Sequence record: MK295205
Reading direction: 5' to 3' (one strand)
DNA from: Shigella phage vB_SflM_004
DNA length: 64,000 bases
A program made the position numbers and the translations under genes. Shown piece after piece: positions 34,736-52,922 of this stretch (the first letter of the stretch is position 1; each line of letters starts with the position of its first letter). The notes beneath the pieces were generated by a model. That model made no database searches, was not told the DNA's origin, and saw only the letters and a list, made by a program, of their open reading frames with translations.

Positions 34736-34740
34736 TATTT

Positions 34741-34913
34741 CTCACCTTTAAAAGCCTTTTCCAAGGTATCAACAAATTCATCATCAATAGGTGTATCTGT
34801 TTTACTCGCAAGGTATCTTGCAAGCTTAAAGAACACTTTTTCAATCATGTATTCACTGAGAAGAGGAAGAAGAAGCCCATAAAGTTTCATGAGGATTGCT
34901 AGAATGGTCGGCA
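34741..34913 (-). CDS. small hydrophobic protein (below track size cut-off)
   Basis: 57-codon ORF MPTILAILMKLYGLLLPLL... read by eye; stop adjacent to next ATG. Confidence 0.3.
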
Positions 34914-34963
34914 TTTAATCACCTTACTTCTTGAGCCAAGATGGTGAGAATACCTATTAAGAA

Positions 34964-34992
34964 ATATTAACACCATCTTGTCAGTTAGTCAA
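34964..34992 (-). promoter_or_regulatory. sigma70-like promoter (leftward)
   Basis: minus-strand TTGACT, 17-nt spacer, TAATAT. Confidence 0.5.
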
Positions 34993-35000
34993 CAAGGTAA

Positions 35001-35957
35001 TTAAGCAGTTTTTACCCAAGCCATTAATTTAATAAAGGCGTTAGTAACATCAAATGCTGCACCAGAACCTGTACCACCAGTTGTACCACTTAATGTGTGG
35101 GCATGAGCACCAATTGTCACAGTGTGTGTATGGTCACCTACCCAACTTGTTCTCCCTGTCCAAGTTCTTGATGCGTAGAAGTTAACTGGTGTACCATAAG
35201 TGAACTGTGAACCAGTATAACCTCTAGAGGCTTGCGATGACATCTTACTACCACCTGCACCAGTCCCGTTCCATCTTACTGTGAAGCTGCTATTTGCAAC
35301 ATTATGGGCGTGACCACCCGCACCAGAGATTTCCATGTTACCTCTGTCATGGTCGTGAGCACCTTGAGCGTCTGTGTACTTAGTACCATAATCAAAGGTA
35401 GTGGTTGTTCCAGAGAAGCTGTGAGTATGACTTGGAAGATGACCTACAGCAATACTCTTAGAGTCTGAGCCACCTACAGAACCAACATCCTCACCAGTTG
35501 AAGAGGCAATTCTAATAGTTCTGAACTGACCATTTGATAGGTAAGCCCAAGTAGTTCCTGCAAATGCTGTATTAGGGTTTACATTCGATGCAAAGAACGT
35601 TACCATACCAACTGGATAGATTTTGTTAAGGTCTGTTGAGTTAGAAATAGCTGTTGCAATCTTCTGGTCAGTCTCTGCTTTAGTGTAAGCTCCAACATCT
35701 CCAGCAGAAGGTTTCTGTGCTTCCGTGAAAGTGTTGTAATCAATTACCACATAACCATCAACCGCATTAGCTGGCTTAGTAGATGACACAGTAGGAGCAG
35801 AATGGACAGTAATAACTGCACCATTGTTGTAGTTAAATTTAAACTGTGCAGTCGGTGTAGATGTACAAACTCCACGCATCATAGTTATCTCCACCAACTG
35901 AAACAGTACATACATCAACACCAACACCACTATCTGTACTTCTGTAAAGAACAGCAT
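35001..35957 (-). CDS. tail fibre protein, C-terminal His-rich domain
   Basis: repeated HxH motifs (HTHSFSG, HDHDRG, HAHNV, GDHTHTVTIGAHAHTLSG) as in long/short tail-fibre tips; N-terminal part of track ORF looks like out-of-frame read-in. Confidence 0.6.
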   Translation of the reverse strand: MLFFTEVQIVVLVLMYVLFQLVEITMMRGVCTSTPTAQFKFNYNNGAVITVHSAPTVSSTKPANAVDGYVVIDYNTFTEAQKPSAGDVGAYTKAETDQKIATAISNSTDLNKIYPVGMVTFFASNVNPNTAFAGTTWAYLSNGQFRTIRIASSTGEDVGSVGGSDSKSIAVGHLPSHTHSFSGTTTTFDYGTKYTDAQGAHDHDRGNMEISGAGGHAHNVANSSFTVRWNGTGAGGSKMSSQASRGYTGSQFTYGTPVNFYASRTWTGRTSWVGDHTHTVTIGAHAHTLSGTTGGTGSGAAFDVTNAFIKLMAWVKTA

Positions 35958-37553
35958 TTAGACCCGATGGGTTTGCATTTCCACTTCTCAATACTAGTTC
36001 ATTTTTGCAAAACTAAGTTGAACCAACGTTGAAACCTGTACCACCATAGAGTCTTAAAGTTGCTGTTGATGGTGTTTGTGGCATTGTTACAGTAGCAATT
36101 TTCACCCAACCACTGTCATAAGTTGTTGCATTCATAGCAGTAGCTCTTGAGAATACAGTATTAGCAACACTTTGTGTGTAGTACCTTGCATCAAAGTTAG
36201 ATACATCTGTAGGGATAACTTGACCTTCAACTCTTAAAGGTTTATTGAGATAAGCTACATCCCTTAACTCTAGATATGTATTCACTGACAAGGTGCTCAG
36301 GGAAGAGTACCTTAGTCTGCTACCTTCACCGTTACCAACATACCAACGTCGCATCAGTACTATCTTTTGCAATAACCCCGTTGCTATTCATTGGCTGGGT
36401 AGCTGTCCCACTTTGCAATGTGAAAGCAGCATCTGTAGTAACAATAGTTTGAGCACCTGTGAAAGTGTTTGCAGAGTTATTTCTTGCAAGACTACTTAAT
36501 AAAGAGCTTACAATATCTTATATAGGAGGACTTATGAGCCACCGTGGAAGAACCCATGCAGCGATGATGAAAGGTGCTTCAAAGGAGACACCAGATGAGT
36601 AGAGTCTCATAGTTGCACCTGTCATCTGGTTAAACAAGTTAACATCCTGCTTAGTCCCATCAGGTTGACCAAGATACCAAGACTCTGAACCAGAACCTGC
36701 GTAGGCTTGAACAAATACTGCACCGTTTGCTGTAGCTGGTTTCAATCTAAGCAAAGACCCATCAGAAATAATTGTCTGATAGTTTGTGAAGTTGTTTGCA
36801 CCTGAGAAGGTATTATTTTCAGTTAGTCTTGCAAATCTTTGGTCAGCAGCTATCAAAAATCGTAAGCAGAAGTTGTTTGAGAGAATGAACAGGTTAATTG
36901 ACAATTCATCTCTTTCAGGTTCTGAGAAGGTTTTTAACTAGGGAACCGGTCTTGTTGTTGTAGAAAATAACATCGTCACTTCCGAATCATTACCTACATA
37001 CCACCTATTAGCTCCAGTACTATCCTGGCTACAATAGCGGAGTATGCCTCACTTGCACCAGCAGGGGTCTTCAGTGTCATAGCTTCACCATTTGCTTGAA
37101 TAACTTGTTGGGAGGTAAAGATGTTATTTGCAGCTAGTCTTGAGTATCTTGCATCATTTTCCTCATTTGTTCTCATACCTAATTCATTAGGAGATGGTTT
37201 ATTAAGTGTGTGATAAACTGTTGCAGACCTTGAAGCATCTGCAATAGTTAGTCTAAGACCGTTTGAGTTAATTTTAAATCTTGAAAGGTAATCTGAAAAG
37301 CATTGCACAAGAACTTGTAGAATAAATCTTTTCCACCGTAAGTTAACTTAACAATACCCAGATTACCTGTCATATTCCCGCCAGCTAATTGCAAGAATCT
37401 TTCAAGTCTGAATGAAGCTAAGAAATTTGCATAGGTCATTTTACGGTCTTCATCACCTAGCATATCAGACCTTTTAATTACTCTCAAATGTAATAGGTCG
37501 TCTGAGCGAACTGTATCAATTGTGTTTAGTTCACTTAGTTTGTATTCAGCCAT
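35958..37553 (-). pseudogene. tail fibre gene N-terminal and central portions, fragmented
   Basis: N-terminus MAEYKLSELNTIDTV...LAGGNMTGNLGIVKL at 37553, then pieces in different frames (36994-37308, 36518-36904, 36013-36372) interleaved with three foreign fragments at about 36520-36595, 36840-36935, 37275-37315. Confidence 0.5.
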
Positions 37554-37598
37554 TTATCAATCCTCTTTATAGGGGCTGTGTAGCCCCTTTATAAATTT

Positions 37599-38788
37599 TT
37601 AAGCAACTCTCTTCCACACATAAACAACATAAGATGGTTGTTCAACACTGAAAGCTTGTCCACCACCAGATGCACCAGTTGTACCTGAGTGAGTGTGCTC
37701 AGAAGATTGAACTGTCACAGTACCACTGTGTGTATGTGAACCAATACCGACTGTGTGGCTGTGAGCACCAATACCGACTGTGTGGCTGTGGTCACCGGAT
37801 GCACCAGATGTAACATCTCCAATCGTCACAACGTGAGAGTGGTCACCTGCCCCATAAGTTGGTTGTGACGCATTACCAACACCTGCATCAGCCGTTGCCG
37901 TAATAGCATTCACACCACGTCCACCAACGTTCTGTACAAGAGCTTGGTGAGTGTGATTGCCAGAGTTGTTTGTATTCCTTGAACCATAGTCAAAAGTACT
38001 GGTATACTTAGTTCCATAGTCAAAGTCACTTGTAGATTTTGTACCATAATCAAACACACTCGTTGTCTTATTTCCGTGGTCGAAACTTGAAGCTGACGCA
38101 CTATTACCATGCGTGTGTCCACCACCAGTTAACAATACAGAGTGTGTGTGACTTGGAATGTTATTTTGAGAAAGTGCTACAGATGCACTACCAAAATTAG
38201 TTTCAACTGGTCTTGTGTCAGAATCATAACCAACTAATGCTCTACCTTTAGAGACAAGTTCCCAAGTACCACCACAAAGTAAATATGTAGATGGGTTTGC
38301 AGGGTTAACTGACAAATGGATAGTACCAATTGGGTAACTATTCTGGATAGCTCTATAAAGAGCATTCACAGCTTTTGCAGTAGCATACTTATCAGCATCT
38401 TCAGAGTAAGAGTTTGAATAAGTCCAGTATTGAATATTGGAGACATCTACCTGAATCTTGTTAGTATTGTGAGGGTTGTTCTTATCATTGATGTGGTTCT
38501 GAATAAGAGTATTAACTTCATCACTTGATAGAATATTAAGGTTCTGCCTAGCCTCTTCAACACTAACCACGTCTGACAAGTTATTAGCAGCCATTAATTG
38601 GAGTGCGTTAACAACATTACCAAGTTCTACGTGAACCTTTGTAACGCCGTGTGGGTTATTTCTTAAAGATGCGTGTGGAGCAAGTAATTGCTCAAGTGTG
38701 CAACGCTTATCCTCAAAAAAATGACACTTGTGTCAATAGGTAAAGAGGCTTGAGGCAATGCACTAATTTGAATTTCACCAACTGCCAT
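37599..38788 (-). CDS. tail fibre protein (frameshift at A7 tract)
   Basis: N-terminus from ATG at 38788 (MAVGEIQISALPQASLPIDTSVIF) continues in +1 frame after plus-strand A7 run at 38715-38721 into ...NNLSDVVSVEEARQNLN... and His-rich C-terminus; track reports only 37599-38594. Confidence 0.6.
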
Positions 38789-38790
38789 TA

Positions 38791-39189
38791 TTAGCTCCCT
38801 TTATATTCGTATGTGTAAAGGTTAGTCGTGCTAGTGGGTGCAGTTCCTGTTACTGTGTCAATTAATTCCCAACCATTGGAAACTAAATCAGGTTGCTCCG
38901 TAGCAAATGAACGAACCTCTCCAACCGTACCATTTACTTTGTTAAGCAAATAGTTAATAATATAGTTAAACCACTGGCGACCCATAGGCTCTCCCCTTAA
39001 TAGGCCAGTGGCTTGAATTTCTGGAGGTGGTAATACTTTAAGCTGGTTACTCCCTTCTTGTTGTGATTTATCTTTTCTACCTTTGACGATTTGAGCAACT
39101 TCTGCCATAATACCATAATCGCCACCAGTTACCATTTCTTTACCAGCAATAAAATAGTCACTGCTATTGTTTGTCTTGCTGACTTTCAT
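38791..39189 (-). CDS. hypothetical structural protein
   Basis: 132-aa ORF directly upstream of tail fibre gene. Confidence 0.4.
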
Positions 39190-39601
39190 ATAATCTTTAC
39201 TGGTACTTCCACCAGTTTTGTCAACTCTAAAGTAACCATCCCTAATACCAGCATCTGCAAAGCTACCAAGCTTGTTAGCCTCCAGAGAACCACCTGTGTT
39301 GTTCGTAATAAGACCCTTGTTAGTGTCTGTAACAAACCAGTTGTTGTTCTCATCAGTAATTGCCAGACGTTATTCAGCAACTTCTACAGGAGTCCACGCA
39401 GTACCATTTAGCGTAATATCTCTTATGATAACTGCTACACTAATAGTTGCCAGAGTTAATTCAGGAGATGTGTATGCTGTATCTACAACGTTGTTTCGAG
39501 TGTTTACACGAACAACAATACCACCCGTCATAGGTGTGATATGTTCAAAGATTTGACTAAACGTTGCATTGTAGTGATGCCTAGCAAGTTCGTAAAAGCC
39601 T

Positions 39602-40174
39602 TTAACAGTGACACTTTAAGGTCTGCACCAAATGCACGAATACCAGCAGGTTTTGTGTCCCAGATTGCTTGTGCGATGTTAACATTCTTATTGTTGAAAG
39701 AAGAAGCCCATAAAGCTTACTGTGAAGCCCATCATAATTTGTAGTCTCTGTGTCGTTCTCTACACCAGAAGCATCAGATACACCTTGAACCCTCTTGACA
39801 GCAGCTACAATAGCATCTAAAGTACCTACACCAGTAACGGCTAAGGATTCTAGATAACGCTGTCTAAGTTCTGTATCAGTTTCTTCGTTACGACCTGCTG
39901 TTAAATCGTATCTGTTAAATACCCCATCAAGACCATCTACAGTCGTTTCAATCTCAATAAAAACTCCACGGAGAGTTTGCAAAACTCCAGTTTCTTCAGC
40001 TACAACGTCACTAATTGATACAATCTTTGTAAATGTTAGGAAGGTCGTTGCAGTTACAACCATAGGGTTTGTTCTTGCAATGATATCTCCAGTATCTTTA
40101 TAGATTCTCAGAAGAGAACCGTCATTGATGACTTCAGCTTTTGCTGCAATACCACCATTGATAGAGTCTGCCAA
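39602..40174 (-). CDS. putative tail/baseplate protein, 3' end disrupted
   Basis: 190-aa ORF; C-terminal ~45 codons read through an inserted fragment (39565-39740) homologous to the 25954 gene. Confidence 0.35.
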
Positions 40175-40244
40175 GTGTTGTAACAGAGTCGTAATGGTAT
40201 CTGAGCTTGTAGGATGGTAAGAGTACTAAGTTGACAAGGTGCCC

Positions 40245-40750
40245 TTATACAATATCTTATATAGGAGGGCTTATGAGCCACCGTGGAAGAACCCATGCAG
40301 CGATGATGAAAGGTGCTTCAAAGGAGACTATCAAGAATCGTAAGCAGAAGTATTTCAAATGTGGTGTCATCTGTTGTTACTTTATTCTTTTGAGATGTTT
40401 GAGAGAATGAACAGGCTAATTGACAATTCATCTCTTTCAGGTTCTGAGAAGGTTTTCTTGAAAGGTAATCTGAAAAGCATTGCACAAGAACTTATTGACA
40501 TTGAGTATTGGAGACATCAAAAATGACACTTGCAGACGTTATTCAGCTCCAGAGTTAATTCAGGAATGTCCATTGTAGTCATGCCTAGCAAGTTCGTAAA
40601 AACCTTTAACAACGACGCTTTAAGGTCTACACACATCCTTATCGTGATTGCAAAAGACCGTACTGGAGTACTCAAAGGTGAACGTATTGATATTCTGGAG
40701 TCTGGGGAAGTGTTGGTAAAGGTTTTGACTGGACACTTCTTCGTGATTCC
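40245..40750. repeat. degraded mosaic copy of the small-gene cassette at 25700-26260
   Basis: colinear ~85 percent identical segments including the RBS and start of the 25748 gene, the SEKVFLKGNLKSIAQELIDIE segment, VVMPSKFVK segment and KDRTGVLKGERI segment, with internal indels. Confidence 0.7.
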
Positions 40751-40852
40751 TTAAAAGTTCTGGTATAAAAACACAAAAGGGGAAGACCTTTTACAGTCTC
40801 CCCCTTATTAGGATTTGTCAAACGTTAAACGTAGTGATTGTTGAAGTGTAGT

Positions 40853-41257
40853 CTAACTTCTCACAACCAAAAATCCAAGTTTTAGAGTTCTGGTCACGTC
40901 CAAGTTCAATCTGTGGAAGCTCTTGCAACCAAGCATTATTACCAGAACTGAACCGGATGGGTCATAAATTACGAAGTTAGATGAAATGTCTTCTTCAAGT
41001 TCCATGTCATCTTGTTTAGCTTGAATTGCAGAAAGCATCTGGTTAGATAGAGAAGTCTGCATTAGCTCAATCTCAATCGTACCTGTTTTATCTGCGTTTC
41101 TTGTCAGAGCTACTTGACCACCTGCACCTACAACTGGCGTAACAAGTGGAGAAGTTCTCTGAAGACGTAAGAATGAGTCTGGTGCAAAACCTTCAATGGC
41201 AATGCCATTCCAGCTACAAACTACATCTTTAGGGGAATATTGCTGATACATAGCCAT
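40853..41257 (-). CDS. hypothetical structural protein
   Basis: 134-aa ORF in tail module; 3' end possibly frameshifted. Confidence 0.4.
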   Translation of the reverse strand: MAMYQQYSPKDVVCSWNGIAIEGFAPDSFLRLQRTSPLVTPVVGAGGQVALTRNADKTGTIEIELMQTSLSNQMLSAIQAKQDDMELEEDISSNFVIYDPSGSVLVIMLGCKSFHRLNLDVTRTLKLGFLVVRS

Positions 41258-41272
41258 TCCTATTTACTCCTA

Positions 41273-41581
41273 TTATTCGTAAGCCACTGTGCCTTTCAAG
41301 TCCACATCCAAGATTGCCCCTGCTAAGATACCGTGGAAGGTAATGTCTTTCAGGATACGAGCTTTCTTATCTGCAAGTGATACTTGTGAGGCTTTAGGAA
41401 CAGTAACGGTATAAGTAGACAAAAAGTTTCTGTTAACTGCTCTCTGAAGAGATGTTTCAATGACCTGACGAACACGAGTAATACCTGTATCATCATAAGT
41501 AATCTTACCACCCTTCTGATTAATTAGCAAGTCTCTTAGAGAAGTTTTCAAGTCTGATTCAAGCCAATCGACATCACTCAT
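41273..41581 (-). CDS. hypothetical structural protein
   Basis: 102-aa ORF. Confidence 0.4.
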   Translation of the reverse strand: MSDVDWLESDLKTSLRDLLINQKGGKITYDDTGITRVRQVIETSLQRAVNRNFLSTYTVTVPKASQVSLADKKARILKDITFHGILAGAILDVDLKGTVAYE

Positions 41582-41584
41582 TAT

Positions 41585-41929
41585 TTAAAAACATACACCA
41601 CCAGAAGTGATACCTCTACGCACTACGAGAGGTAGACTATCGTGAACAATAAGGTTACAGCTACGTGCATCAAGTGCTGACTTCTGAATGCTTGTCAGAG
41701 GTCTCTTGTTAGCTGGCTGCATAGATGCTGCTACACCAGTTAACTGAGCATTACCCCAAGCAATAGAACCTGCATCGTATGGAGCACCATAAGCAATGTA
41801 AGCCATTTCTGGGTAGTCAAAGCTTGCTGTGTGATGCCATAGACATACTGTACGAGTGTACTTACTCTTAGAGAGTTGTGTGAAAGCAATGGTTGCAGAA
41901 GCCAGTTCAGTTCCTTGCAGAGCTTTCAT
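41585..41929 (-). CDS. hypothetical structural protein
   Basis: 114-aa ORF. Confidence 0.4.
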   Translation of the reverse strand: MKALQGTELASATIAFTQLSKSKYTRTVCLWHHTASFDYPEMAYIAYGAPYDAGSIAWGNAQLTGVAASMQPANKRPLTSIQKSALDARSCNLIVHDSLPLVVRRGITSGGVCF

Positions 41930-42129
41930 GTCATTGCTTGCCTTGGAGTAATTTTTCTATCTGGCTGTAATCCCTCATTGCAGTAACGAACTGTGAAGTT
42001 CTGTCTTCAGTTGCAATAAAGTACCAATCAGTTGAGTACGTTTCAATTGCAGCCAGAGCTACAGAAGCACTATCAGCAGTTGTTGCAGAGATTGAAAGAG
42101 TCTGTGCAGTTGTTGTAACTCTTACGAGG

Positions 42130-42375
42130 ACAAAAACGCTTCTTATAGCCTCCCACCAGAGATGCAAGATTGCAGAGTCTATAAGTTACATGGTGATGCC
42201 ATAAGCAATAGCCCCTGTATCAAGCACCGAGACATTGTTGTTGTCAGGTGTCCAAACTGTGGTACTCATCTCTAACCTTTGTTTTAGCTCAAGCATAATG
42301 CTGTGAGCACCTTTACCATTTACAGTAATTAATACTGGAATCTGAAAAGCAATTCAAACAACAACATCTTACACG
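42130..42375. repeat. diverged fragment of the lipoprotein gene (45990-46090) between structural genes
   Basis: shared strings cctcccaccagagatgcaagattgcagagt and ttacatggtgatgc.ataagca. Confidence 0.6.
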
Positions 42376-42381
42376 AATTTA

Positions 42382-42669
42382 TCAAGAACCCAACCATAAG
42401 GTGTGACAGCATCTTGACAGTAAACTGTAATAAACGGTTGGTCTGGTTGCTATGGCAAAAATGATTCTTGTATCTGTTAGTCTGATACCTTCAGGTAAAA
42501 CAATCTGTGTACCATTCTTTACAGAACCCTTAATATAAGGTTGAATATTACCTTTGCAGGGAATGTCAACAATATCTTCAGAAGCTACCCAATCACCATC
42601 GTTATTGTAATAACCATCTTCAGATACTTTGCGTTTCACTACAAAGCTGTGTCTGTTTAAGAGTCTCAT
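42382..42669 (-). CDS. hypothetical head-tail protein, 3' end disrupted
   Basis: 95-aa ORF whose last ~20 codons run into the inserted fragment. Confidence 0.35.
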   Translation of the reverse strand: MRLLNRHSFVVKRKVSEDGYYNNDGDWVASEDIVDIPCKGNIQPYIKGSVKNGTQIVLPEGIRLTDTRIIFAIATRPTVYYSLLSRCCHTLWLGS

Positions 42670-42953
42670 TTTTTAATACCTTTCTTAGTAGAAATTTTAT
42701 AAGCAAGGTTATCTCGTAAATCCCCAGTTTCTACAAGAGGTGCGTTGAAACCTTTTTGTTTAATTGTAGAAGGAGCGTTAGGAGGGAGGATAGCAGTATT
42801 ACCAAAGCCTCTCTTAATTGCCTTTTGAGCATTCTTTGCAAATGCCTCTAAAGTTTCTGAGGGGTCTGTATTAAGACTATTTAGTTGCTTATAGAGATTC
42901 TTCTTAGTCTGCTCTAACAAGGTCTGTCTGTGTAACATCATAGTAATTAGCAA
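42666..42953 (-). CDS. hypothetical structural protein
   Basis: 95-aa ORF. Confidence 0.4.
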   Translation of the reverse strand: MLITMMLHRQTLLEQTKKNLYKQLNSLNTDPSETLEAFAKNAQKAIKRGFGNTAILPPNAPSTIKQKGFNAPLVETGDLRDNLAYKISTKKGIKK

Positions 42954-42971
42954 GGATTACGACGACGCATG

Positions 42972-43283
42972 TCAATCACACACTGCATAAGGGAGGCCAC
43001 TAACAGAGCTTTTAACTAGGTCGTCATATACAGCTTTAAGAGATTTGAATCTGGAAGAGTTACGTAAGTAAACACCACCAACCTTCTCATCTCCCATCTT
43101 GGCTACTTGAAAGAGTAAATATTTAAGAGCTTTGATGGCTGCTTTCTTTTCATCCTTTCCAGATTCTTGGTAGAACCACTCTAGCACCGATTGGTCAATG
43201 AGGATTTCACTGTTATTGAGTGAGGTGCTCAAGATGGAAGTCCTAGTAAAAGGGTTATTAGCGGGGTCGCCTGTATAACACAT
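42972..43283 (-). CDS. hypothetical structural protein
   Basis: 103-aa ORF downstream of capsid gene. Confidence 0.4.
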   Translation of the reverse strand: MCYTGDPANNPFTRTSILSTSLNNSEILIDQSVLEWFYQESGKDEKKAAIKALKYLLFQVAKMGDEKVGGVYLRNSSRFKSLKAVYDDLVKSSVSGLPYAVCD

Positions 43284-43304
43284 TATAACCCTCCTTTCAA
43301 GTTA

Positions 43305-44447
43305 TTACTCAGCGTCTGAACGAACGTCAACAAGCAGTTGAGGACGTGTGCAGTATGGCAGCATGTAAGAGTGAGCTTCGAAGTCAATACCTTCGTCACG
43401 GTCTTTCTCATATTCGAACACATACAGTTCCTGACCCAGAGTGTTTGCATAACCCATCTTAGGACATGGAGCTATATCTACTGTTATGATGTTGTTCACT
43501 CCACTCAACATTGCTACGTTAGGGAATGCGTGACCTACACCTACAGTTGAAGCATCAACACCATCGATGCTAACCAGAGTATGAGTCTTACCACGCTTAT
43601 CTTTGAACTTACCGTTGTACTGTACGAATACACAACCGTAGTAGAAACGGTTCATGTGAGCCTGAACACCGTCAGTTCCACCAGTTCTCAGAGAACCAGT
43701 AATCTGTTGCCAAGCAAGCGGAGTCTGCTGTGCAAGGTATGCGTCACGAATCTTAGGATGCTTGATAAGCTTGCTGAAGAAAGTTCTGTCAACAACGATG
43801 TGAATTTCTTCACCGTTGATTACAGTACCTCAACGTAATCCAATAGTTCCACGAGAAGGTTCGATATCAGAGTTCGGGTTGTCCAAGTCGAAGTAGATAG
43901 TCTTCTTAGTTACGTCGAACTGCTTGTACAGGTCTGCGTACAGAACACCGTTAGCATCGATAACTTTACCCTTCAGAGCTTGCATGAACAGGAACTCACG
44001 AGTAATATCGGAGTTGGTTCGAATCGTCATCAGCTTCTTAGCACGTACAACTGCTTCAGTAGTCAGTTCATTTGCAGTGCCTGGCTGACGAACACCCTGA
44101 ATCTCATCAGGAGTGATGCTTTCAACTTCCTTGAAGTACATCATTGGGAAGCTAATCTGACGAACACGCTCAGGAGCGCTAGTCTCAGCTTTACGGCTAG
44201 TACGGTCTAGATAAGACAGTTGCAGGTCTGCGTAGAAGTTAACGATACATACAGAGTCTGCCTGAGCTTCTTCACCTGCTGCGACCTTAGTACCATCAGC
44301 TTTCAGGGTTGGACTTACACTGTATTCTGTGCTGGCTACTGGAGCGTACTCTTTACGAGAGTGACCAGTTGGGGTGATTTCTTCCCAAAGGAAAGCATCA
44401 TTCATAAGTTCTCTGTTACCTAAATGTGTAAAACCTTGATATGCCAT
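43305..44447 (-). CDS. major capsid protein (lambda gpE-like) with in-frame TGA
   Basis: track ORFs 43830-44447 and 43305-43655 are in the same frame, separated only by TGA at 43830-43832 and 58 stop-free codons; combined ~380 aa with E-like C-terminal pattern. Confidence 0.55.
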
Positions 44448-44459
44448 TATTTGTGTTCC

Positions 44460-45407
44460 TTATTTCTTGATAAGAGTATTCAAAGCATTCTGGAGAGCCA
44501 GTTTGCGTTGGTCAGCGTTAGCATTAGCACTTGCTTCTGGAGCGGTATCTTTACCGTCATCCACTTCTGCTTCGCCGTTATTGCCAAGTTCTTCCATAGC
44601 GTTTGAGTGTTCCAGAACAGCACCAGCCGCTTCTTTCAGCTTAGTGATTTCAGAATCCTTCTCAGACATGGCAGAAGCATGGGACGCGATAGTTTCATTA
44701 AGTTTCTGGTTAGCACCTTCCATAACATTCATAAACAGAACACTCAGAGGGTTATCAAGACCAGCACCTAAAATAGCTGTTGCAGCTTCTTTTGCGTCAA
44801 ATCCAAAAGCTTCAGCAGATGCAGAAATCTTACCAGTTAAATCTGTAAGTGCTGCTTCCTGTTCCTTAGCTTTCATTTGAGCAACCTGAAGACGCAGAGC
44901 TTCTAGTTCTTGCTTTTCTTGTTCAGTCATTTCTTCACCTGAATTGTTTGTGTTTAAACTTACAGGAGCTTCTTCAGAACCTTGTAAGTAATTTAAGAAA
45001 TCATCTTGAGACATGATAGAATTAATTAAACCAAGTTCAAGAGCTTCCTGAGCAGAATAAACATTTGCCTCAGTATTCTTTACAGCTTCTTCAGAGATAT
45101 TACGTGAGTCTGCAACAAAACTAGTAAAAGTTTCGTAGGTGTCATCAATTCTCTTTTGAAGTCTATTCTTGCTTTCTTCTGATATTGCTGGTGATGGAGA
45201 ACCCATACCTTTAAATTCACCAGCCTTAATAACGTTAATTGTAACGCCATTCTTTTCAAGTGATTGACGTAGAGATTGGTGGACCATAATTACACCGATT
45301 GAACCAACATCTGCATCTGGTGATGCAATAATTTCTTCAGCAGAAGATGCAAGAGCATATGCAGCAGAGCAAGCAAACTCATCTACATAAGCAATAATTT
45401 TCTTTTT
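44460..45407 (-). CDS. prohead protease (S49/SppA-like) fused to scaffold-like domain, 5'-truncated
   Basis: protease-like sequence KKIIAYVDEFACSAAYALASSAEEIIASPDADVGSIGV...NVIKAGEFKGMGSP runs upstream of first ATG (45287) without a start codon and is cut by a stop at about 45480; C-terminal half is Ala/Glu/Lys-rich coiled coil. Confidence 0.55.
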   Translation of the reverse strand, partial: KKKIIAYVDEFACSAAYALASSAEEIIASPDADVGSIGVIMVHQSLRQSLEKNGVTINVIKAGEFKGMGSPSPAISEESKNRLQKRIDDTYETFTSFVADSRNISEEAVKNTEANVYSAQEALELGLINSIMSQDDFLNYLQGSEEAPVSLNTNNSGEEMTEQEKQELEALRLQVAQMKAKEQEAALTDLTGKISASAEAFGFDAKEAATAILGAGLDNPLSVLFMNVMEGANQKLNETIASHASAMSEKDSEITKLKEAAGAVLEHSNAMEELGNNGEAEVDDGKDTAPEASANANADQRKLALQNALNTLIKK

Positions 45408-45418
45408 GCTAAGAGAAA

Positions 45419-45610
45419 ATGAACAAAGAAGATAAGCATAAAAATGCTGTACGAACTCCTGATGGAAAGGTTCAATCCTTCATCCTGACAGTTGGTGGAA
45501 AACCGTTTCGTTGCCACTGCGGAGCAAACTGTTTTCATAAACCAGATAAAAATGATTTAGAGCTTTACGCATGTAATGCTTGCAATACTTGGTATCACTC
45601 AGAGGAATAA
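45419..45610 (+). CDS. hypothetical Cys-rich small protein
   Basis: 63 aa, CHCGANCF...CNACNTW; its 3' part recurs at 49420-49470. Confidence 0.35.
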   Translation: MNKEDKHKNAVRTPDGKVQSFILTVGGKPFRCHCGANCFHKPDKNDLELYACNACNTWYHSEE

Positions 45611-45885
45611 AATGACAATACTGTACAAACAAAATAAAGATGGCTCTTTTAACATCTGGTCATGTACTGCTGTAGGTGACAAGGTTATTACAACCTCGGT
45701 AAAGAAAATGGCAAGATGAAGAGTATACAGCAGAACCTAAAAACATCGGTAAAAAGAATGAGCGTAACGCTGAACAGCAAGCTCTCTTTGAAGTTGCTGC
45801 TAAGTATAAAAAGCAGGTTGACCGCTAAGATTGCAAAAGACCGTACTGGAGTACTCAAAGGTGAACGTATTGATATTCTGGAGTT
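45540..45885. repeat. chain of short fragments copied in order from loci at 49420-51960 and 40640
   Basis: exact or near-exact 23-50-nt matches to 49420-49470, 49725-49750, 50105-50135, 51185-51235, 51428-51455, 51925-51958, 40640-40695, in the same order. Confidence 0.7.
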
Positions 45886-45888
45886 GCT

Positions 45889-46158
45889 ATGAAGAAAATG
45901 TACAGTCTCTGGGGAAGTATTATGTGGAAAGCAGTAATTGCGCTTGGTGTTGTTTTTCTATCTGGCTGCAACCCTTCTTATGAAGATAAAAATGCTTCTT
46001 ACAGTCTCCCACCAGAGATGCAAGATTGCAGAGTATACAAGTTACATGGTGATGCTATAAGCAGAGATATTGTTGTTGTCAGATGTCCAAACTCCCAAAC
46101 AACAACATCTTATAGCTATGGCAAAAATGGTCAATCACACACTACGGTTATTGAGTGA
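45889..46158 (+). CDS. putative lipoprotein
   Basis: signal peptide with lipobox VFLSGC; 89 aa; degraded paralog at 26590-26763. Confidence 0.5.
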   Translation: MKKMYSLWGSIMWKAVIALGVVFLSGCNPSYEDKNASYSLPPEMQDCRVYKLHGDAISRDIVVVRCPNSQTTTSYSYGKNGQSHTTVIE

Positions 46159-46699
46159 GGTTTTTTCTATCAAGAACTCGATACTGCTTCTCTGAAAGAT
46201 TTGCAAACTTACAGAAACGACGAACAAAACGCATGTGTCGTGATTTTACTCGTGGTAACCATTTTGCTGCCAGAGCAGACGTGTTAGGGTCTAACAGTGC
46301 AGCTTCTAAATGCTTGAAAGCATCTGTTTCGTAACGTGTACCAACAAAGATTTTGAAGTCGTCGTAACGACCTAAGTCAGAAATCTTATCCATGATACGC
46401 AATACTTGGAACTCATCAAGTATACCATCAGAGATTGCCTTGGTAAGAGTATAACGGAACGCTTTGCGCTCTCCCATACCTTCTCGTGCATCTCGCATGT
46501 GTAACAGGATTCGAACTGCTACATCAATGTCTTCTCGCATAGCCTTGTAAAACAAGTTTGGAAGACTCTCTACATTTGACCTGCTTGAACCAGCAGCTTT
46601 GTAGAAATCTACCAGTGCAGACATTGAAGAGGTGTGGTTAACAGCACCGTTTTCAGTTAAACCTGCATGTAGATGCGAGTGTTTAAATAATTCGCTCAT
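46148..46699 (-). CDS. hypothetical protein (possibly N-terminal fragment of a larger gene)
   Basis: 183 aa; GLTENGAV...RILLHMRDAREGMGERKAFR is reminiscent of TROVE/DUF2828-type N-termini (weak, from memory); ORF ends where the lipoprotein block begins. Confidence 0.35.
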   Translation of the reverse strand: MSELFKHSHLHAGLTENGAVNHTSSMSALVDFYKAAGSSRSNVESLPNLFYKAMREDIDVAVRILLHMRDAREGMGERKAFRYTLTKAISDGILDEFQVLRIMDKISDLGRYDDFKIFVGTRYETDAFKHLEAALLDPNTSALAAKWLPRVKSRHMRFVRRFCKFANLSEKQYRVLDRKNLTQ

Positions 46700-46951
46700 A
46701 TTAATTCTCTCTCGTTAGAATGTTTTGGTGAGACAGACTCTAACGTTTGATTCAGAACCTGTCAACACCTTTTTATTATTTTTTCAGAGTTGCTACAGCA
46801 GAGAACGTTGGTTTGTTTTCCTGTGGCTTATCTCCACCTTTCTCACCGCTATTCTTACTGTCTGCTGCAATGGCTTTCATCTCACCTGCTGAGTGAGTCA
46901 TGATAGTCTTACCAGCTTCCATCATTGACTTCAGGTTTACGTTATCAACCG

Positions 46952-47146
46952 TCAAACCAAACTCTTGAGCTTGTTCGCATTGCTGGTAACAACTGCCTCA
47001 AACAGCTTTGCAGCATACTCTGCTGAGTTGTCAATAGTCAACTGTGCCTTGACCAGTGAACTTTTGTTACGAGAACCCTTTGGTCTTCCAGATGGGTTAC
47101 CTGATTGGCCTTTCTTGAACTGGCCTTTGTTAGTTCGTTTAGTCAT
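46952..47146 (-). CDS. hypothetical protein with GNPxGRPKG N-terminal motif
   Basis: KGQFKKGQSGNPSGRPKGSRNK; reading frame appears to shift downstream (46760-46950). Confidence 0.35.
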   Translation of the reverse strand: MTKRTNKGQFKKGQSGNPSGRPKGSRNKSSLVKAQLTIDNSAEYAAKLFEAVVTSNANKLKSLV

Positions 47147-47322
47147 TTCTTCACCTCTTTTAAGACTTCTTAAAAGGCTTTTAAGATAAGAGATAGATAT
47201 CCAGAAAGATATCTGTTTAAATAGCCTTTTTAGAAGAGTCTTTTAAGTAATCTTCTAAGTGTTTTATTAGGCTACACGTTGTCAAGAGGAATGTCAAGTA
47301 AATTTTTTAGTTGCAATACTTC

Positions 47323-47351
47323 TTGACTTGTTGTATGGATTACTGTACCAT
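47323..47351 (+). promoter_or_regulatory. sigma70-like promoter
   Basis: TTGACT, 17-nt spacer, TACCAT; precedes AAGGAGA SD and ATG at 47396. Confidence 0.4.
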
Positions 47352-47395
47352 CTTACTAAAGCTGTAGGTCTGCCTTTATCTACAAAGGAGACTTA

Positions 47396-47557
47396 ATGAG
47401 AAACAACACGAAATCGAAGACAGGTAATAATACCAATCACTGTAAGGAATCAAAGCGGGTAGAATTACTCTATTACAAATCCTCTGAAATTGGTTTGTAC
47501 CTATACTTTCAAAATTATAGACGACAAGAGGATTATTTATGTGTAGCTCCCAACTAG
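47396..47557 (+). CDS. hypothetical small protein (below track cut-off)
   Basis: 53 codons, strong SD AAGGAGA 7 nt upstream. Confidence 0.35.
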   Translation: MRNNTKSKTGNNTNHCKESKRVELLYYKSSEIGLYLYFQNYRRQEDYLCVAPN

Positions 47558-47772
47558 AAATCACAGATATTATTGATTTATACCAAACTGCAAAGAGTCA
47601 TGGGTATATCACTTCAATTGGAAAGAATAAGCACTATGATGCACTAACTGGTATGTATTTCAGAGCAATAGCTCAATCTAGTGAACAGGTTCTAATGGTT
47701 TCTTCCAGTGAATTTGCTTCATTTCTCTATTGCAGCAAGATTATCAATCGTAGGAGAACTGATAAATGTTAA
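47539..47772 (+). CDS. hypothetical protein
   Basis: 77-aa ORF. Confidence 0.4.
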   Translation: MCSSQLEITDIIDLYQTAKSHGYITSIGKNKHYDALTGMYFRAIAQSSEQVLMVSSSEFASFLYCSKIINRRRTDKC

Positions 47773-48134
47773 ACGTGAGTTTTAATTATAATGGTGATGG
47801 GTCTGTATCAATCACTTCACCATATTCTGATGACCTTCTTAAATGGTTGGACTTACACTGTGGAAGAGGTATGCACTACGTACCTAATTCATTTAAACAG
47901 AAAACAATTGCAAATAACTTGATGCGTGTTACTGTTCAGTCAATGAACCCAGATTATAACATTGATGGTGAAAGCCCATATTCACTTATGGCTTTAGGTG
48001 CTAATAGTGAATTTAAACTGGTGTGTCATGATTCAGAAACATTCTTCAAAGTATTCTCAAATCTTATCCACAATGCTAAATACAGTTATGTAGCTGGTTC
48101 AGCATCATTCCAGCAAACTACACATGTGTTATGA
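47766..48134 (+). CDS. hypothetical protein
   Basis: 122-aa ORF. Confidence 0.45.
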   Translation: MLNVSFNYNGDGSVSITSPYSDDLLKWLDLHCGRGMHYVPNSFKQKTIANNLMRVTVQSMNPDYNIDGESPYSLMALGANSEFKLVCHDSETFFKVFSNLIHNAKYSYVAGSASFQQTTHVL

Positions 48135-48352
48135 TTGATAACCTCAGAGAGTCTGAAGATACTTCCACAGAGATTTCTTTCGATGTGAACACCTCTCCAG
48201 AGTCCACTCCAAGTAATGACTTCGACATGAACTATGCGTTATCTCTGAGTAAGAAATCTGATTTCATTGAGTACGTCAATGGATTTGGATTTAAGTTGGA
48301 TGAGACAATGAATCTCAAAAAACTTAAAAACATGCTTAAGACTATGGCTTAA
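48131..48352 (+). CDS. hypothetical acidic protein
   Basis: 73-aa ORF. Confidence 0.4.
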   Translation: MIDNLRESEDTSTEISFDVNTSPESTPSNDFDMNYALSLSKKSDFIEYVNGFGFKLDETMNLKKLKNMLKTMA

Positions 48353-48360
48353 GTTTTATA

Positions 48361-48381
48361 GGGGCTGATGCCCCTTTAATT
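48361..48381 (+). terminator. putative terminator
   Basis: hairpin GGGGC-TGAT-GCCCC followed by TTTAATT. Confidence 0.45.
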
Positions 48382-48398
48382 ATTTATAAGGATATTTA

Positions 48399-48743
48399 AT
48401 GAAAGCTAAGAGTGGAAAAGACTTTTATTGCTTCCTACAATCTTATGTCCAAAGTGTTCAAGAAGGTGACAGGTATAATCTTGATGATGTACTTCCGACA
48501 CCCTTAACATGGCGTGATAGCAAATGGCCTGAGAAGGATATCAACCCTACCGAAACATATTCCGAATACACACCTAAAATTCCTCTACCAGATACTGAAG
48601 AACTTCTTTACCCAATGTTTCATATCGTTGGTCTTGGTACATTTTTGATGGATATTCATAAGTTTGATGTTGCTGGCGATGTTTCTCCGCATCACAAAGG
48701 CTATTTTAGACTAAACGCACATTTAGAGGCTAAAAAGAAATGA
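48399..48743 (+). CDS. hypothetical protein (tandem paralog A)
   Basis: 114 aa; shares RY(N/D)...LP(T/L)..WPE.DI...YTP...EELLY with next gene. Confidence 0.45.
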   Translation: MKAKSGKDFYCFLQSYVQSVQEGDRYNLDDVLPTPLTWRDSKWPEKDINPTETYSEYTPKIPLPDTEELLYPMFHIVGLGTFLMDIHKFDVAGDVSPHHKGYFRLNAHLEAKKK

Positions 48744-48994
48744 TTAAAGCAAAGACTTACCCAGACTTCAAAGAGTTTGTTAAAGACTTTGTAGCGAATG
48801 TTAAAGCTGGCAAAAGATACGACTTCAGAAAGTATCAAGAGGCCGTTCTGCCTCTGACATATAGCTCACCGTGGCCTGAGTCTGATATCCCTGAAGTCTA
48901 CACACCAGATTATACAGTTCCATTTAGTGAAGAACTTTTATATTCAGTTGGTGCTCAGATGAGGACTGCTGACTTCTTCATGGATTGGTGGTAA
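48740..48994 (+). CDS. hypothetical protein (tandem paralog B)
   Basis: 84 aa; ATGA overlap with paralog A. Confidence 0.45.
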   Translation: MIKAKTYPDFKEFVKDFVANVKAGKRYDFRKYQEAVLPLTYSSPWPESDIPEVYTPDYTVPFSEELLYSVGAQMRTADFFMDWW

Positions 48995-49139
48995 GAGAAA
49001 ATGACTGTAGAAGATGACACAGTTTATTGTGAATGGTTGGCAAGGGTTAAACCTTTCTCCATGCTTAATGCAAAATTTAAGAACGCAATCACACCTCCAG
49101 TTCTTACAGAACAACTGACCAAACTGATGGTGAGCTTGA

Positions 49140-49470
49140 AACATTCATTCTTCGTGTTGATGGTACTGGTGCAACTGGTTATCAGTGGAAGAAAGGTGCA
49201 TCAAACATCTCTGGAGCAACCTCTGCAACATATACTAAGAATGGCGTAGTCCCTACTGATAGCTATTCCGGTGTCGTTGTGGGTCAAACTGTTTCTCCAA
49301 CACTGCTACAGTAACTGTGAATGCACTGCCTGTGATTACACAGCAACTAACCAAGAGATTACAGAGGGAGATACACTTACCCTTAGTATTGTAGCAACTG
49401 GTGCAACTGGTCACAAACCAGATAAAAATGACTTAGAGCTTTACGCATGTAATGCTTGCAATACTTGCAT
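49140..49470 (+). pseudogene. fragments of an Ig-like domain protein
   Basis: out-of-frame pieces DGTGATGYQWKKGASNISGATSATYTKNG and TVNALPVITQQLTNQEITEGDTLTLSIVATGATG typical of bacterial Ig-like repeats; no intact ORF. Confidence 0.4.
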
Positions 49471-49512
49471 CTCAATCTTCCAAGGTAGTTATTAATGCAG
49501 TAGGAGCATAAA

Positions 49513-49957
49513 ATGCAACTCTCAAGTAAAGGCTTAGAAGCCATTAAGTTCTTTGAAGGGTATCACTCAGAGGTTAAAAATGACAATTCTGTAATCCCTA
49601 CAATTGGTTATGGTACAATTCGTATCAACGGAAGACCTGTTACGATGGGGATGAAGATTACTGCCGAGCAAGCTGAACAATATCTCCTTGCAGATGTTGA
49701 GAACTATGTAGGTGCACAAACAAAATAAAGACGGCTCTTTTAACGTAGAATGAGTTTGATGCACTTGTTGTAGAGACTTACAACATTGGCATCGGTGCTA
49801 TGCAGGATTCAACTTTTATCAAGCGTCATAATGCTGGTAACAAAGCTGGTCATGCGCAGTGGTGGAACAAGATTACAGTGAATGGTCAAAAAGTAACTTC
49901 CAAGGGTCTACAAAATAGACGTAGTTTGGAAGCCAAGATTTACCTTGACGCTGTTTA
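49513..49957 (+). pseudogene. lysozyme (GH24 type) interrupted at 49720-49750
   Basis: N-terminus LEAIKFFEGY...PTIGYGT...ITAEQAEQYLL in frame 1; conserved C-terminus (NEFDALVVETYNIGIGAMQDSTFIKRHNAGN...) resumes in another frame after a ~27-nt foreign segment that recurs near 45630. Confidence 0.55.
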
Positions 49958-49974
49958 TCCAAAATAGTAGATTA

Positions 49975-49999
49975 AGAGGCTCCTTCGGGAGCCTTTTTT
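49975..49999 (+). terminator. rho-independent terminator
   Basis: hairpin GAGGCTCC-TTCG-GGAGCC followed by TTTTTT. Confidence 0.65.
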
Positions 50000-50005
50000 A
50001 TTTCT

Positions 50006-50416
50006 ATGGAGAAAACTATGAAACTTTGGGCTGATGATGTTGGGACTTTTAAGTACACAAGAAGTGGTATGAAGGTTCGTATTGCAGGAACCAAGTTGAT
50101 TGCTGTAGGTGACAAAGTTATTACAACCTTTACTGTAGAGCTTGTTGAGCTGTCGCCTATCACAATGGCTAACAAAGGCTTCTTTGCTGGTGAACTGTAC
50201 AACGTGGATGACAATGGTATGTTCTCACCTTTAGGTGAAAGTTCTCTTGATATTATTTCAGAACACCCCTTGACAAGAGAGCAGTTATCAGGTTACTATA
50301 AATTTCTACTTGAGAAGCAGAAGGAAGTACACAATCGTGAGGCTATTTACCATAACAATGAGTGTATCAAACTTCTGGATAAAATTGAGAAAGCTGAGAG
50401 AGGTTTTTATGAATAA
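50006..50416 (+). CDS. hypothetical protein
   Basis: 136-aa ORF. Confidence 0.45.
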   Translation: MEKTMKLWADDVGTFKYTRSGMKVRIAGTKLIAVGDKVITTFTVELVELSPITMANKGFFAGELYNVDDNGMFSPLGESSLDIISEHPLTREQLSGYYKFLLEKQKEVHNREAIYHNNECIKLLDKIEKAERGFYE

Positions 50417-50738
50417 CGAGATTCAAGTAAAGGTTGACACATTTGGTCATGATGGCGATGTATATCGTGGCTTGGCAAAAGCAATCATCTTCCAAGAAGA
50501 CGGGAGACTGAAGTTGCAGTTTGAATCAGGAAGCATCTTAGAACACAGTGGCGATGATGCAGATGGTTGTCCAATTTTTGGATGGTTTGACCTGAATTTT
50601 CATCTTTATGCAATCCACTACCCAGATGGTGGAGAAGACTGGACAACTCAATCTATCTTTGATGAACTGAATGGTGTACCTTGTTTCAGAACCAACCCTT
50701 CTAACTTTCACCTTCATCAAAGAAGAAAAAGTTGGTGA
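50409..50738 (+). CDS. hypothetical protein
   Basis: internal ATG (MNNEIQVKV) overlapping upstream stop. Confidence 0.4.
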   Translation: MNNEIQVKVDTFGHDGDVYRGLAKAIIFQEDGRLKLQFESGSILEHSGDDADGCPIFGWFDLNFHLYAIHYPDGGEDWTTQSIFDELNGVPCFRTNPSNFHLHQRRKSW

Positions 50739-50783
50739 TATCTCCGTAACAGAAGCTTTGCAAGTTACACAGGTAATCTGATA

Positions 50784-51077
50784 ATGAGTAAAGTACAGGT
50801 TATTTTCCCTATTTGTGACTTCTCACTAGAGCCTGAGTTTGACCTGTACGAAGAACTTACTGATGATGTTATCTGGGGTGTAGTATCAAAGGCCATTAAG
50901 AAACTCTATGGTGGCCTTTTAAACCCAAACAATGCAAAGGTATCTACAAAGCAAGTATCTGAACCGTACACCAGTTATGATGCTGAGAAACGTAAGTTTG
51001 AGATTACTTGCTATGACCTTCTTGTTTCTGAGAACAAAATCAACTACTTCTTCGTCAGAGAATATGCAGATGCTTAA
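50784..51077 (+). CDS. hypothetical protein
   Basis: 97-aa ORF. Confidence 0.4.
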   Translation: MSKVQVIFPICDFSLEPEFDLYEELTDDVIWGVVSKAIKKLYGGLLNPNNAKVSTKQVSEPYTSYDAEKRKFEITCYDLLVSENKINYFFVREYADA

Positions 51078-51414
51078 GCTCCACATCGTTGTTTATAAGA
51101 ATTTCGCAGATATACAAGAAGCCCTGTCATCAAAACTTGACAGGTCTTATCAAAGACTCTTTGTGATGTTTGACATGGTTGACGGTAAAGAAAATGGCAA
51201 GATGATGTTTGAAGAGTATACAGCAGAACCTAAAAGCCAAGACTCGGTGACAATCTTCGTAAAACATGATTTGTCATCTAAGAACATTGGTCTGCTGGAG
51301 TTCTATATCTTTAAAGCTACAGGTATGCGTGGCGAAAACATAAAAGTGGACTCTATAGAGGTTTTTGAGAAACCTAACACACCACTTAAAAAGTATTTAG
51401 TGAGGAAGTTATAG
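51064..51414 (+). CDS. hypothetical protein
   Basis: internal ATG (MQMLKLHIVV). Confidence 0.4.
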   Translation: MQMLKLHIVVYKNFADIQEALSSKLDRSYQRLFVMFDMVDGKENGKMMFEEYTAEPKSQDSVTIFVKHDLSSKNIGLLEFYIFKATGMRGENIKVDSIEVFEKPNTPLKKYLVRKL

Positions 51415-51557
51415 TATGAGTGTACACATCGGTAAAAAGAATGAGCGTAATGCTCCACAAGTAACACTGGTACAACACTTTGGAAACATTCAAGGTGTAC
51501 TGGCTGCATTTCAACCATCTATCACATCACCTGCAAAAGTTGCCAAATTGACTATGG

Positions 51558-51896
51558 ATGGAACAGCATATTGAAGAAGTTCAATACTTTAAATTCACAG
51601 ATAAAGAGGTTGATGAGGCACTTCTGAAGTACCGTTTAGACCTTGAGAAAGACATTAACCACCAAGAGCTTGTAACACTGTTTGGTGACCTTCACAAGCT
51701 TCTTGAAAAGGTTATGAAGCGCACATACTACATGAATAATGGTTCAATCGTCACCACTCTGATTTCACCGTTCACTGATGAGGTGATTTTGACAGATGAT
51801 AAGCAGTTCTTTGTCATGACTGCCTCAAGCTCAGATTGGTGGATGAAGAACACAGGTATGAAGACGATACTGCTTCAAGCTCAGATTGGTGGATGA
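51558..51896 (+). CDS. hypothetical protein
   Basis: 112-aa ORF; 3' end lies in a tandem duplication. Confidence 0.4.
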   Translation: MEQHIEEVQYFKFTDKEVDEALLKYRLDLEKDINHQELVTLFGDLHKLLEKVMKRTYYMNNGSIVTTLISPFTDEVILTDDKQFFVMTASSSDWWMKNTGMKTILLQAQIGG

Positions 51897-51920
51897 AGAA
51901 CACAGGAATGAAGACGATAG
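51828..51920. repeat. tandem direct duplication of ~46 bp
   Basis: ctcaagctcagattggtggatgaagaacacagg.atgaagacgata occurs twice back to back. Confidence 0.8.
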
Positions 51921-51975
51921 CTCTCTTTGAAGTTGCTGCTAAGTATAAAAAGCAAGTTGCTGCCTAGAAAATATG

Positions 51976-52004
51976 CTTGACAGTAATATCTAGAATTTTG
52001 TATG
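51976..52004 (+). promoter_or_regulatory. sigma70-like promoter
   Basis: TTGACA, 17-nt spacer, TATGAT. Confidence 0.55.
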
Positions 52005-52081
52005 ATGGGAGCTATCGAAAGGTAGTTCCCTTTTTTATTGGAGAGATAAAACCGTCAAAGTTAAAGAGTCAGATAAAGGTT

Positions 52082-52471
52082 ATGCTTACACAAAAGAGTC
52101 CAGCCCAAAGAACTAAGGCATTTGTTACGTATGTGTCTGATAGCGGGGTAGTATACTTTAGACCTGTGAAGAATATGCACTTCAAGTTGTACCCAGATTC
52201 ACCAAATCCCTTAGAAGGTCACTTGTGGGCTGGTAAAATCTATTCAACTGCTGATATTGAAAACTTAACCTTCACAGGAAGCTTCAGAAAGATTCTGGGT
52301 ATTGCCTTGGCAGACACTGGTATCGTTAAAGATGAAGATGCACAGAATACTGAGAAGGTAACTTTTGAGGCAACTCCGACTCTGAAGAAAGAGGCAACTC
52401 CAAAGGTTAGAACGATTGATGTTACTATAGAGGCTCCTACACACAGACTTTCAAACTCACGTTGTAGATAA
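52082..52471 (+). CDS. hypothetical protein
   Basis: internal ATG (MLTQKS) downstream of the promoter; track ORF starts inside the promoter. Confidence 0.4.
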   Translation: MLTQKSPAQRTKAFVTYVSDSGVVYFRPVKNMHFKLYPDSPNPLEGHLWAGKIYSTADIENLTFTGSFRKILGIALADTGIVKDEDAQNTEKVTFEATPTLKKEATPKVRTIDVTIEAPTHRLSNSRCR

Positions 52472-52523
52472 TGCTGAGGAGTACTTTAAACAGTTCTGTA
52501 ATCCTAATCCACACCACCATAAC

Positions 52524-52748
52524 TTGATTCCACCACAAAAGAAATTCAACTCAATGTTGACTAGTACTTGTGAAGATGCTAAAAAGAATGTGGAAGAACT
52601 AAAAGAAGCAATCAGTGTCACAGACCATGTGGTTAATAAGAATGACATTGAGTACACAGTAAGAATGATGTTAAAAGCTGGTTTCACACCTTATCAGATT
52701 GCTGAAGAGATTCAAAGGCAATTCTACAACGCAATGGTGAAAGAATGA
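52524..52748 (+). CDS. hypothetical protein
   Basis: 74-aa ORF. Confidence 0.4.
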   Translation: MIPPQKKFNSMLTSTCEDAKKNVEELKEAISVTDHVVNKNDIEYTVRMMLKAGFTPYQIAEEIQRQFYNAMVKE

Positions 52749-52922
52749 AAAGATGTACAGCTTCAGACGAGCTAAGAAGACTAAACAGTGTTATGGCAAA
52801 ATTGCCAGAGGTGATATCTTAGTATGTACTGAAGAATCACTTAAGAACGTTACTCCCAGAGGTAAAGTCCTGCAAAGACTTGTTGACCTTGAGTGGAACA
52901 AAAGATTGAGAGGGATTGAACA

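Follow-up and report, generated by a model that had tools for sequence, protein, structure and literature searches.

Can a phage major capsid protein (MCP) gene carry a stop codon in the middle of its frame, and what would such a stop mean? The question was raised by a minus-strand frame in a 64,000-nt stretch of DNA from Shigella phage vB_SflM_004 (MK295205), which was analysed as a whole and is hereafter called the window. The initial annotation had described two ORFs of one capsid gene separated by a TGA, and had offered an opal nonsense mutation, a programmed read-through site or a base-call error as explanations. The coordinates of the features discussed are collected in Table 1.

Table 1. 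Features of the flagged frame, its surroundings and the replayed segments (window coordinates)
Feature	Position	Strand	Description
Flagged 380-codon frame	43305-44447	-	Chimeric pseudo-ORF: codons 1-79 of upstream small gene, then capsid residues 60-367, with one internal TGA
In-frame TGA	43830-43832	-	TCA on plus strand; aligned with invariant Thr (ACA in Moogle) of natural capsid proteins
Capsid-derived part	43305-44209	-	Moogle capsid residues 60-367; 100% Moogle except four clustered patches
Deletion junction	44209-44210		349 nt lost (Moogle 54007-54355); resulting fusion in frame
gp76-derived part	44210-44447	-	5' 238 nt of small gene upstream of capsid; phrog_4146 positions 1-80 of 125
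Prohead protease remnant	44460-45458	-	Only Moogle residues 124-449; 5' end replaced by Felixounavirus ligase-region sequence (45410-45824)
Foreign piece	43209-43250	+	ULIM8 37739-37780; in truncated gp74 homologue directly downstream of capsid gene
Foreign piece	43472-43505	+	ULIM8 37781-37814; overwrites 33 nt of capsid, GEANNIFEVAY to SGVNNIITVDI
Foreign piece	43632-43641	+	ULIM8 37815-37824; 3-nt net loss, GGVVF to GCVF
Foreign piece with TGA	43829-43860	+	32 nt, exact copy of Felixounavirus ULIM8 37825-37856; replaces Moogle 53610-53657 (48 nt)
Foreign piece	44011-44026	+	ULIM8 37857-37872; KIRTKFD to TIRTNSD
Foreign piece	44305-44323	+	ULIM8 37873-37891; in gp76-derived part
Foreign piece	44390-44411	+	ULIM8 37892-37913; in gp76-derived part
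Foreign piece	45185-45196		ULIM8 37918-37929
Foreign piece	45255-45282		ULIM8 37930-37957
Foreign piece	45410-45468		ULIM8 37958-38016
Replay 1	36533-39698		ULIM8 36940-37296
Replay 2	40272-45815		ULIM8 36940-38371
Replay 3	45826-57934		ULIM8 37299-39118

A capsid-type frame with one internal stop

Translation of the minus strand at 43305-44447 gave 380 codons and a terminal TAA, with exactly one internal stop. The ORFs 43830-44447 (205 aa) and 43305-43655 (116 aa) were confirmed to share one frame. The stretch that separates them (58 codons, 43656-43829) was open, with the TGA at 43830-43832 as the only interruption, just as the initial annotation had described. The joined protein matched Pfam PF03864 (Phage_cap_E) at residues 86-375 in one stretch across the TGA (E = 5.8e-55), the match covering only positions 55-327 of the 329 in the profile. 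The PHROG family phrog_29 (major head protein) was also matched on each side of the stop, split into 86-198 and 214-359 because a patch of foreign sequence and the stop interrupt the match. A full-length match to Phage_cap_E or phrog_29 within one uninterrupted ORF was not found in the flagged frame. The Pfam match across the TGA and the PHROG matches on either side of it indicated that the shared frame was no chance juxtaposition and reflected descent from one capsid gene; both ORFs are parts of a single lambda-gpE-type capsid frame that is now defective.

The region 43000-45300 matched 258 Felix-O1-like phages (Ounavirinae), with Citrobacter phage Moogle as the best match (96%). Protein alignment assigned residues 80-380 of the frame to residues 60-367 of the Moogle MCP (gp75, YP_009145718; Ounavirinae, PF03864, phrog_29), to which they were identical outside four overwritten patches, and residues 1-79 to the N-terminus of gp76; the PHROG profiles agreed, giving phrog_4146 and then phrog_29. 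The claim of an approximately 380-aa capsid protein with a lambda gpE-like C-terminus thus held for the capsid match at 86-375 (PF03864) and failed for the first 79 codons, which belong to the upstream small gene. Compared with gp75, the flagged frame has lost the first 59 residues and begins instead with 79 residues from a different protein; further on, 10 unrelated residues and a stop stand in place of a conserved segment of 16 residues. For an intact capsid protein of 367 aa, the peptide DAHIEDLRMHMEDEAKTGTV is expected.

Deletion and in-frame fusion upstream of the capsid part

Moogle has three separate genes at this locus, encoding a prohead protease (449 aa), gp76 (125 aa) and the MCP (367 aa), and the arrangement of protease, small gene and MCP is common to Felixounavirus, Kolesnikvirus and an Erwinia phage. 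The match of Moogle to 43000-45300 was obtained in two pieces, spanning 371 nt more in the Moogle record than in the window. The 349-nt deletion comprises 178 nt of the 5' end of the capsid gene, 31 nt of intergenic sequence and 140 nt of the 3' end of gp76, and takes away capsid residues 1-59; the start codon and the ribosome-binding site of the flagged frame are given by the gp76-derived part. Microhomology was looked for at the 44209/44210 junction and none was found. The junction was absent from all of the approximately 260 relatives, in which its two halves lie approximately 430 nt apart.

The small protein gp76, encoded between the protease and the MCP, is named 'tail protease' in RefSeq and PHROGs (phrog_4146), a name that the gene position makes doubtful. 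It also gave a weak match to the head-decoration family phrog_2680 (E = 7e-5).

The stop codon lies in a copy of another locus

The segment of ULIM8 that was copied over the TGA site falls in a hypothetical CDS (37764-37970). The replacement at 43829-43860 changed the length by -18 nt and kept the frame, turning the Moogle capsid residues DAHIEDLRMHMEDEAKT (48 nt) into EPSRGTIGLR and the stop (30 nt) in the flagged frame. Comparison with related capsid genes, which had been proposed as a check for the aligned sense codon, gave ACA (Thr) at the TGA column, two bases from TGA. Thr occupied this column in 6/6 natural capsid proteins, from Mooglevirus, Felixounavirus, Kolesnikvirus and an Erwinia phage, and the 16-residue segment replaced in the window was conserved in the same six MCPs from four genera. 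Each of 218 natural Felix-O1-like phages carried a single copy of the 32-nt piece itself, always under a hypothetical protein and outside the capsid gene, and none of 275 relatives covered the 86-nt patch with its flanks at the capsid locus. The TGA thus corresponds to a TCA, read in reverse complement, within a fragment of another gene that lies on the opposite strand.

The same pattern was seen throughout the capsid part. Over 926 nt of capsid sequence, 55 differences from Moogle were detected, all in four clusters (16, 48, 5 and 33 nt) in which every change was non-synonymous, and zero differences were found outside these clusters. The capsid genes of the natural pair Moogle and Michonne differed by 17 synonymous versus 4 non-synonymous codon changes. 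The patches in the capsid and flanking genes were consecutive gap-free pieces of Escherichia phage ULIM8 (Felixounavirus) 37739-38016. Ten pieces spread over 2,260 nt (43209-45468) joined to a sequence of 274 nt that matched ULIM8 at 274/274 positions, with one 4-nt gap. This sequence restores residues 1-50 encoded by a hypothetical gene of 68 aa, a Felixounavirus early gene located directly upstream of the DNA ligase gene. Natural mosaicism and novel or scrambled sequence were ruled out as sources of the patches, which are exact pieces of another ULIM8 locus. The foreign pieces showed 68% identity to the bases that they overwrote in 21 equal-length patches, when compared with a null of 26 +/- 1.5%.

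Approximately 44 codons of the flagged frame come from reading the wrong strand of foreign DNA. By our own arithmetic, 44 random codons would contain one or more stops with a probability of approximately 88%, and the single stop is about what chance predicts for such codons.

Missing and broken late genes

Twelve of the 35 Moogle late proteins had no match in the window, including the portal, the terminase large subunit, the tape measure protein (TMP) and the TMP chaperone, and most of the remaining ones were truncated, frameshifted or stop-bearing, as found for tail fibre, sheath, baseplate, holin, endolysin and protease. Two large segments were absent: Moogle 42742-49265 (baseplate genes, tape measure, chaperones) at 40227-40743, and Moogle 55555-66066 (protease N-terminus, head protein, portal, terminase and all 21 tRNAs) at 45409-46173, where the gap was filled with Felixounavirus ligase-region sequence. 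ARAGORN detected no tRNA in the 64-kb window, compared with 21 in Moogle. Fourteen in-frame stops (6 TAA, 5 TAG and 3 TGA) were located in homologous segments within 34379-49964 and aligned to nine different residues; these stops and frame shifts sit in homologues of holin, tail fibre, baseplate, sheath, gp71, gp88 and endolysin. The resulting genome is non-viable.

These results bear on the reading of the TGA as a true opal mutation, by which a real phage, suppressor-dependent or simply defective, would have acquired a nonsense codon in its capsid gene. A lone internal stop in a 380-codon frame matching Phage_cap_E would be in keeping with it. However, ACA to TGA requires two substitutions, and the codon lies at the edge of a 48-nt segment that was replaced by 30-32 nt of unrelated sequence copied from another locus, in a gene from which capsid residues 1-59 are missing. 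Moreover, a suppressor could not rescue a genome that lacks portal, terminase and tape measure. We consider an opal mutation very unlikely. The suggestion that the phage is defective pointed in the correct direction, and what is defective is not an intact capsid gene bearing one lesion, as the 349-nt deletion and the foreign patches demonstrate.

Two phage genomes in one window

The segments 1-25 kb and 61.7-64 kb of the window were Felixounavirus-like, with approximately 96% identity to ULIM8 and natural-looking synonymous divergence. The ratios of synonymous to non-synonymous changes in the first 25 kb were 61/7 for NrdD, 38/3 for NrdA and 131/12 for the polymerase, and this natural-looking divergence indicates that part of the window is genuine sequence. 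From approximately 26 to 61.7 kb, the window had a backbone of Moogle (Mooglevirus), often at 100% identity, with clumped patches, large deletions and replayed Felixounavirus pieces, and approximately 24 kb of the 88-kb genome was missing. Across approximately 25-58 kb, 78 ordered exact pieces of ULIM8 (at least 12 nt each) were identified, and the Felixounavirus stream was replayed three times in ascending order over 36533-57934. At 60148-61709, a 1,547-nt stretch was 100% identical to the end of the Moogle record (86449-87995 of 87999); after Moogle 87995, the sequence switched within 14 nt to a Felixounavirus-type rIIA, coinciding with the end of the database record. One parent was thus 100% identical to a Citrobacter phage record, and the other was an E. 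coli/Salmonella-type phage.

The lengths of the perfect Moogle runs in 26000-62000 were exact multiples of 50 nt in 15 of 122 cases, with 2.4 expected (p = 3e-8), including 250-nt runs such as 34551-34800, 34885-35134 and 36601-36850. A constant phase of a 50-nt grid was looked for in window or Moogle coordinates and was not found, so that the quantisation is statistical only. This enrichment is suggestive of an algorithm that works block by block.

No copy of the patch with its flanks was found in IMG/VR, the JGI metagenome contigs or the GTDB genome contigs, IMG/VR also lacked the deletion junction, and the 2.3-kb capsid region had no match in E. coli genome or plasmid collections. Nor were the exact ORF products on record. 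With these searches all negative, the idea that the window is a public contig or a prophage remnant was rejected.

A real but defective DNA molecule, which two co-infecting Ounavirinae phages would have generated through serial template switching before it was sequenced, would account for the natural phage origin of both parental sequences and for the location of the switches at sites of local similarity. It would nevertheless require dozens of switches between non-homologous loci, leaving 10-60-nt pieces with both templates advancing monotonically, a foreign stream replayed three times, and run lengths quantised at 50 nt, and its parents would have to be an exact Citrobacter phage record and an E. 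coli/Salmonella-type phage. To our knowledge, no replication process yields such serial non-homologous switching, and we regard this origin as highly improbable. That the window is a faithful record of a real Mooglevirus/Felixounavirus chimera from one cell, formed by dozens of similarity-guided switches with the capsid TGA as one scar, is barely credible.

Tests for recoding of the TGA

UGA is the leakiest stop codon in enterobacteria, and an RNA hairpin was predicted directly 3' of the TGA (z = -2.77), as would be compatible with programmed read-through, with reassignment of TGA (code 4 type) or with insertion of selenocysteine. The hairpin, however, is native to Moogle, where it accompanies the Thr codon and is stronger (z = -4.67), and no relative has a stop at this position, the column being invariant Thr in natural capsid proteins as described above. 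The capsid segment was covered to at least 80% by 294 of 304 relatives, and the match lay under one capsid CDS in every annotated relative listed; the approximately 290 relatives with an uninterrupted capsid gene contradict the read-through site proposed at first. Reassignment is opposed by the neighbouring stops, which are of all three kinds and align to residues such as T, R and V and in no case to W; the pattern of TGA-only stops aligned to one amino acid was not observed, the three TGAs aligning to R, T and V. No suppressor tRNA with the anticodon UCA was found, the whole 64 kb being free of tRNAs according to ARAGORN. For selenocysteine, no SECIS or other Rfam element matched 43000-47000 at E <= 1, and the homologues have Thr. 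ORF totals under codes 11, 4 and 15, and with TAA read as a sense codon, did not discriminate between the codes, as ORFs lengthen whenever any stop is removed.

The window shares with the Qbeta coat/A1 read-through and with code 4/15 reassignment one superficial likeness, a single in-frame stop between two same-frame ORFs of a virion gene. Unlike these systems, its stop is unconserved, has no suppressor tRNA, is surrounded by mixed stops and lies in a gene that is otherwise destroyed. The probability of read-through or recoding is, in our judgement, negligible. The native hairpin of the Moogle MCP mRNA, strong and local (-23.8 kcal/mol; corresponding to 43765-43829 of the window), directly follows the conserved Thr codon and has no relation to the TGA.

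For a single base-call or homopolymer error in a capsid gene that is correct elsewhere, only the occurrence of one stop could be cited. Such an error is practically out of the question, as the altered stretch reproduces 32 nt of another locus exactly (ULIM8 37825-37856), has an 18-nt net length change and is one of a tiled series.

Origin of the stop and its meaning

We conclude, with a probability of roughly 0.93, that the TGA is a functionless by-product of a composite sequence in which two phage genomes are interleaved. The capsid region is Moogle base for base, overwritten by short consecutive pieces of an unrelated Felixounavirus locus, and the 32-nt piece that replaces 48 nt of capsid happens to spell TGA when its opposite strand is read in the capsid frame. 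A separate 349-nt deletion joins the capsid part, with the frame kept, to codons 1-79 of the small gene upstream, creating an apparent 380-codon 'capsid gene'. The frame is open only because three independent length changes (349 nt over two genes, -18 nt and -3 nt) all chance to preserve it. Among dozens of wrecked genes, the flagged one alone kept its frame, hence its appearance as a gene with a single stop.

The sequence comparisons show where each patch comes from, exactly, and also the deletion, the fusion and the general wreckage of all the late genes. The divergent patches were exact, ordered pieces of a second, non-homologous locus, the genome was non-viable, and the junctions were found in none of the collections searched for each. 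Composite artefacts produced by mis-merging, mis-assembly or generation resemble the window in that two unrelated loci from two phage genera are interleaved with abrupt switches, and further in the long stretches with 100% identity to one database genome, the large unexplained deletions and the genes broken throughout. In contrast to ordinary assembly chimeras, which have one or a few breakpoints, dozens of 10-90-nt pieces are tiled here in order, placed by local similarity, and the intact runs are 50-nt quantised.

From this pattern, the composite was most likely made in silico rather than by a replicating phage. Candidates would be a similarity-guided merge or consensus of at least two genomes, a generative or perturbation procedure, or gross mis-assembly. 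A simple merge that takes one genome where aligned and otherwise the other was considered and rejected, as it leaves the large deletions unexplained. Probably no biologically relevant protein would be made from the flagged frame.

The in-frame TGA is real in the text of the sequence, and it is an artefact that carries no biological signal; the finding matters only as quality control. The region of approximately 26-62 kb is unfit for mining recoding, gene fusions or 'novel' small ORFs, as its in-frame stops, split or fused genes and missing tRNAs are products of two interleaved genomes, and other 'split gene' or in-frame stop findings within 34379-49964 have the same trivial cause. If the sequence is meant as a real phage, re-assembly from the reads is required. 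If it is synthetic, the locus demonstrates that a chance frame-preserving lesion is able to mimic programmed read-through.
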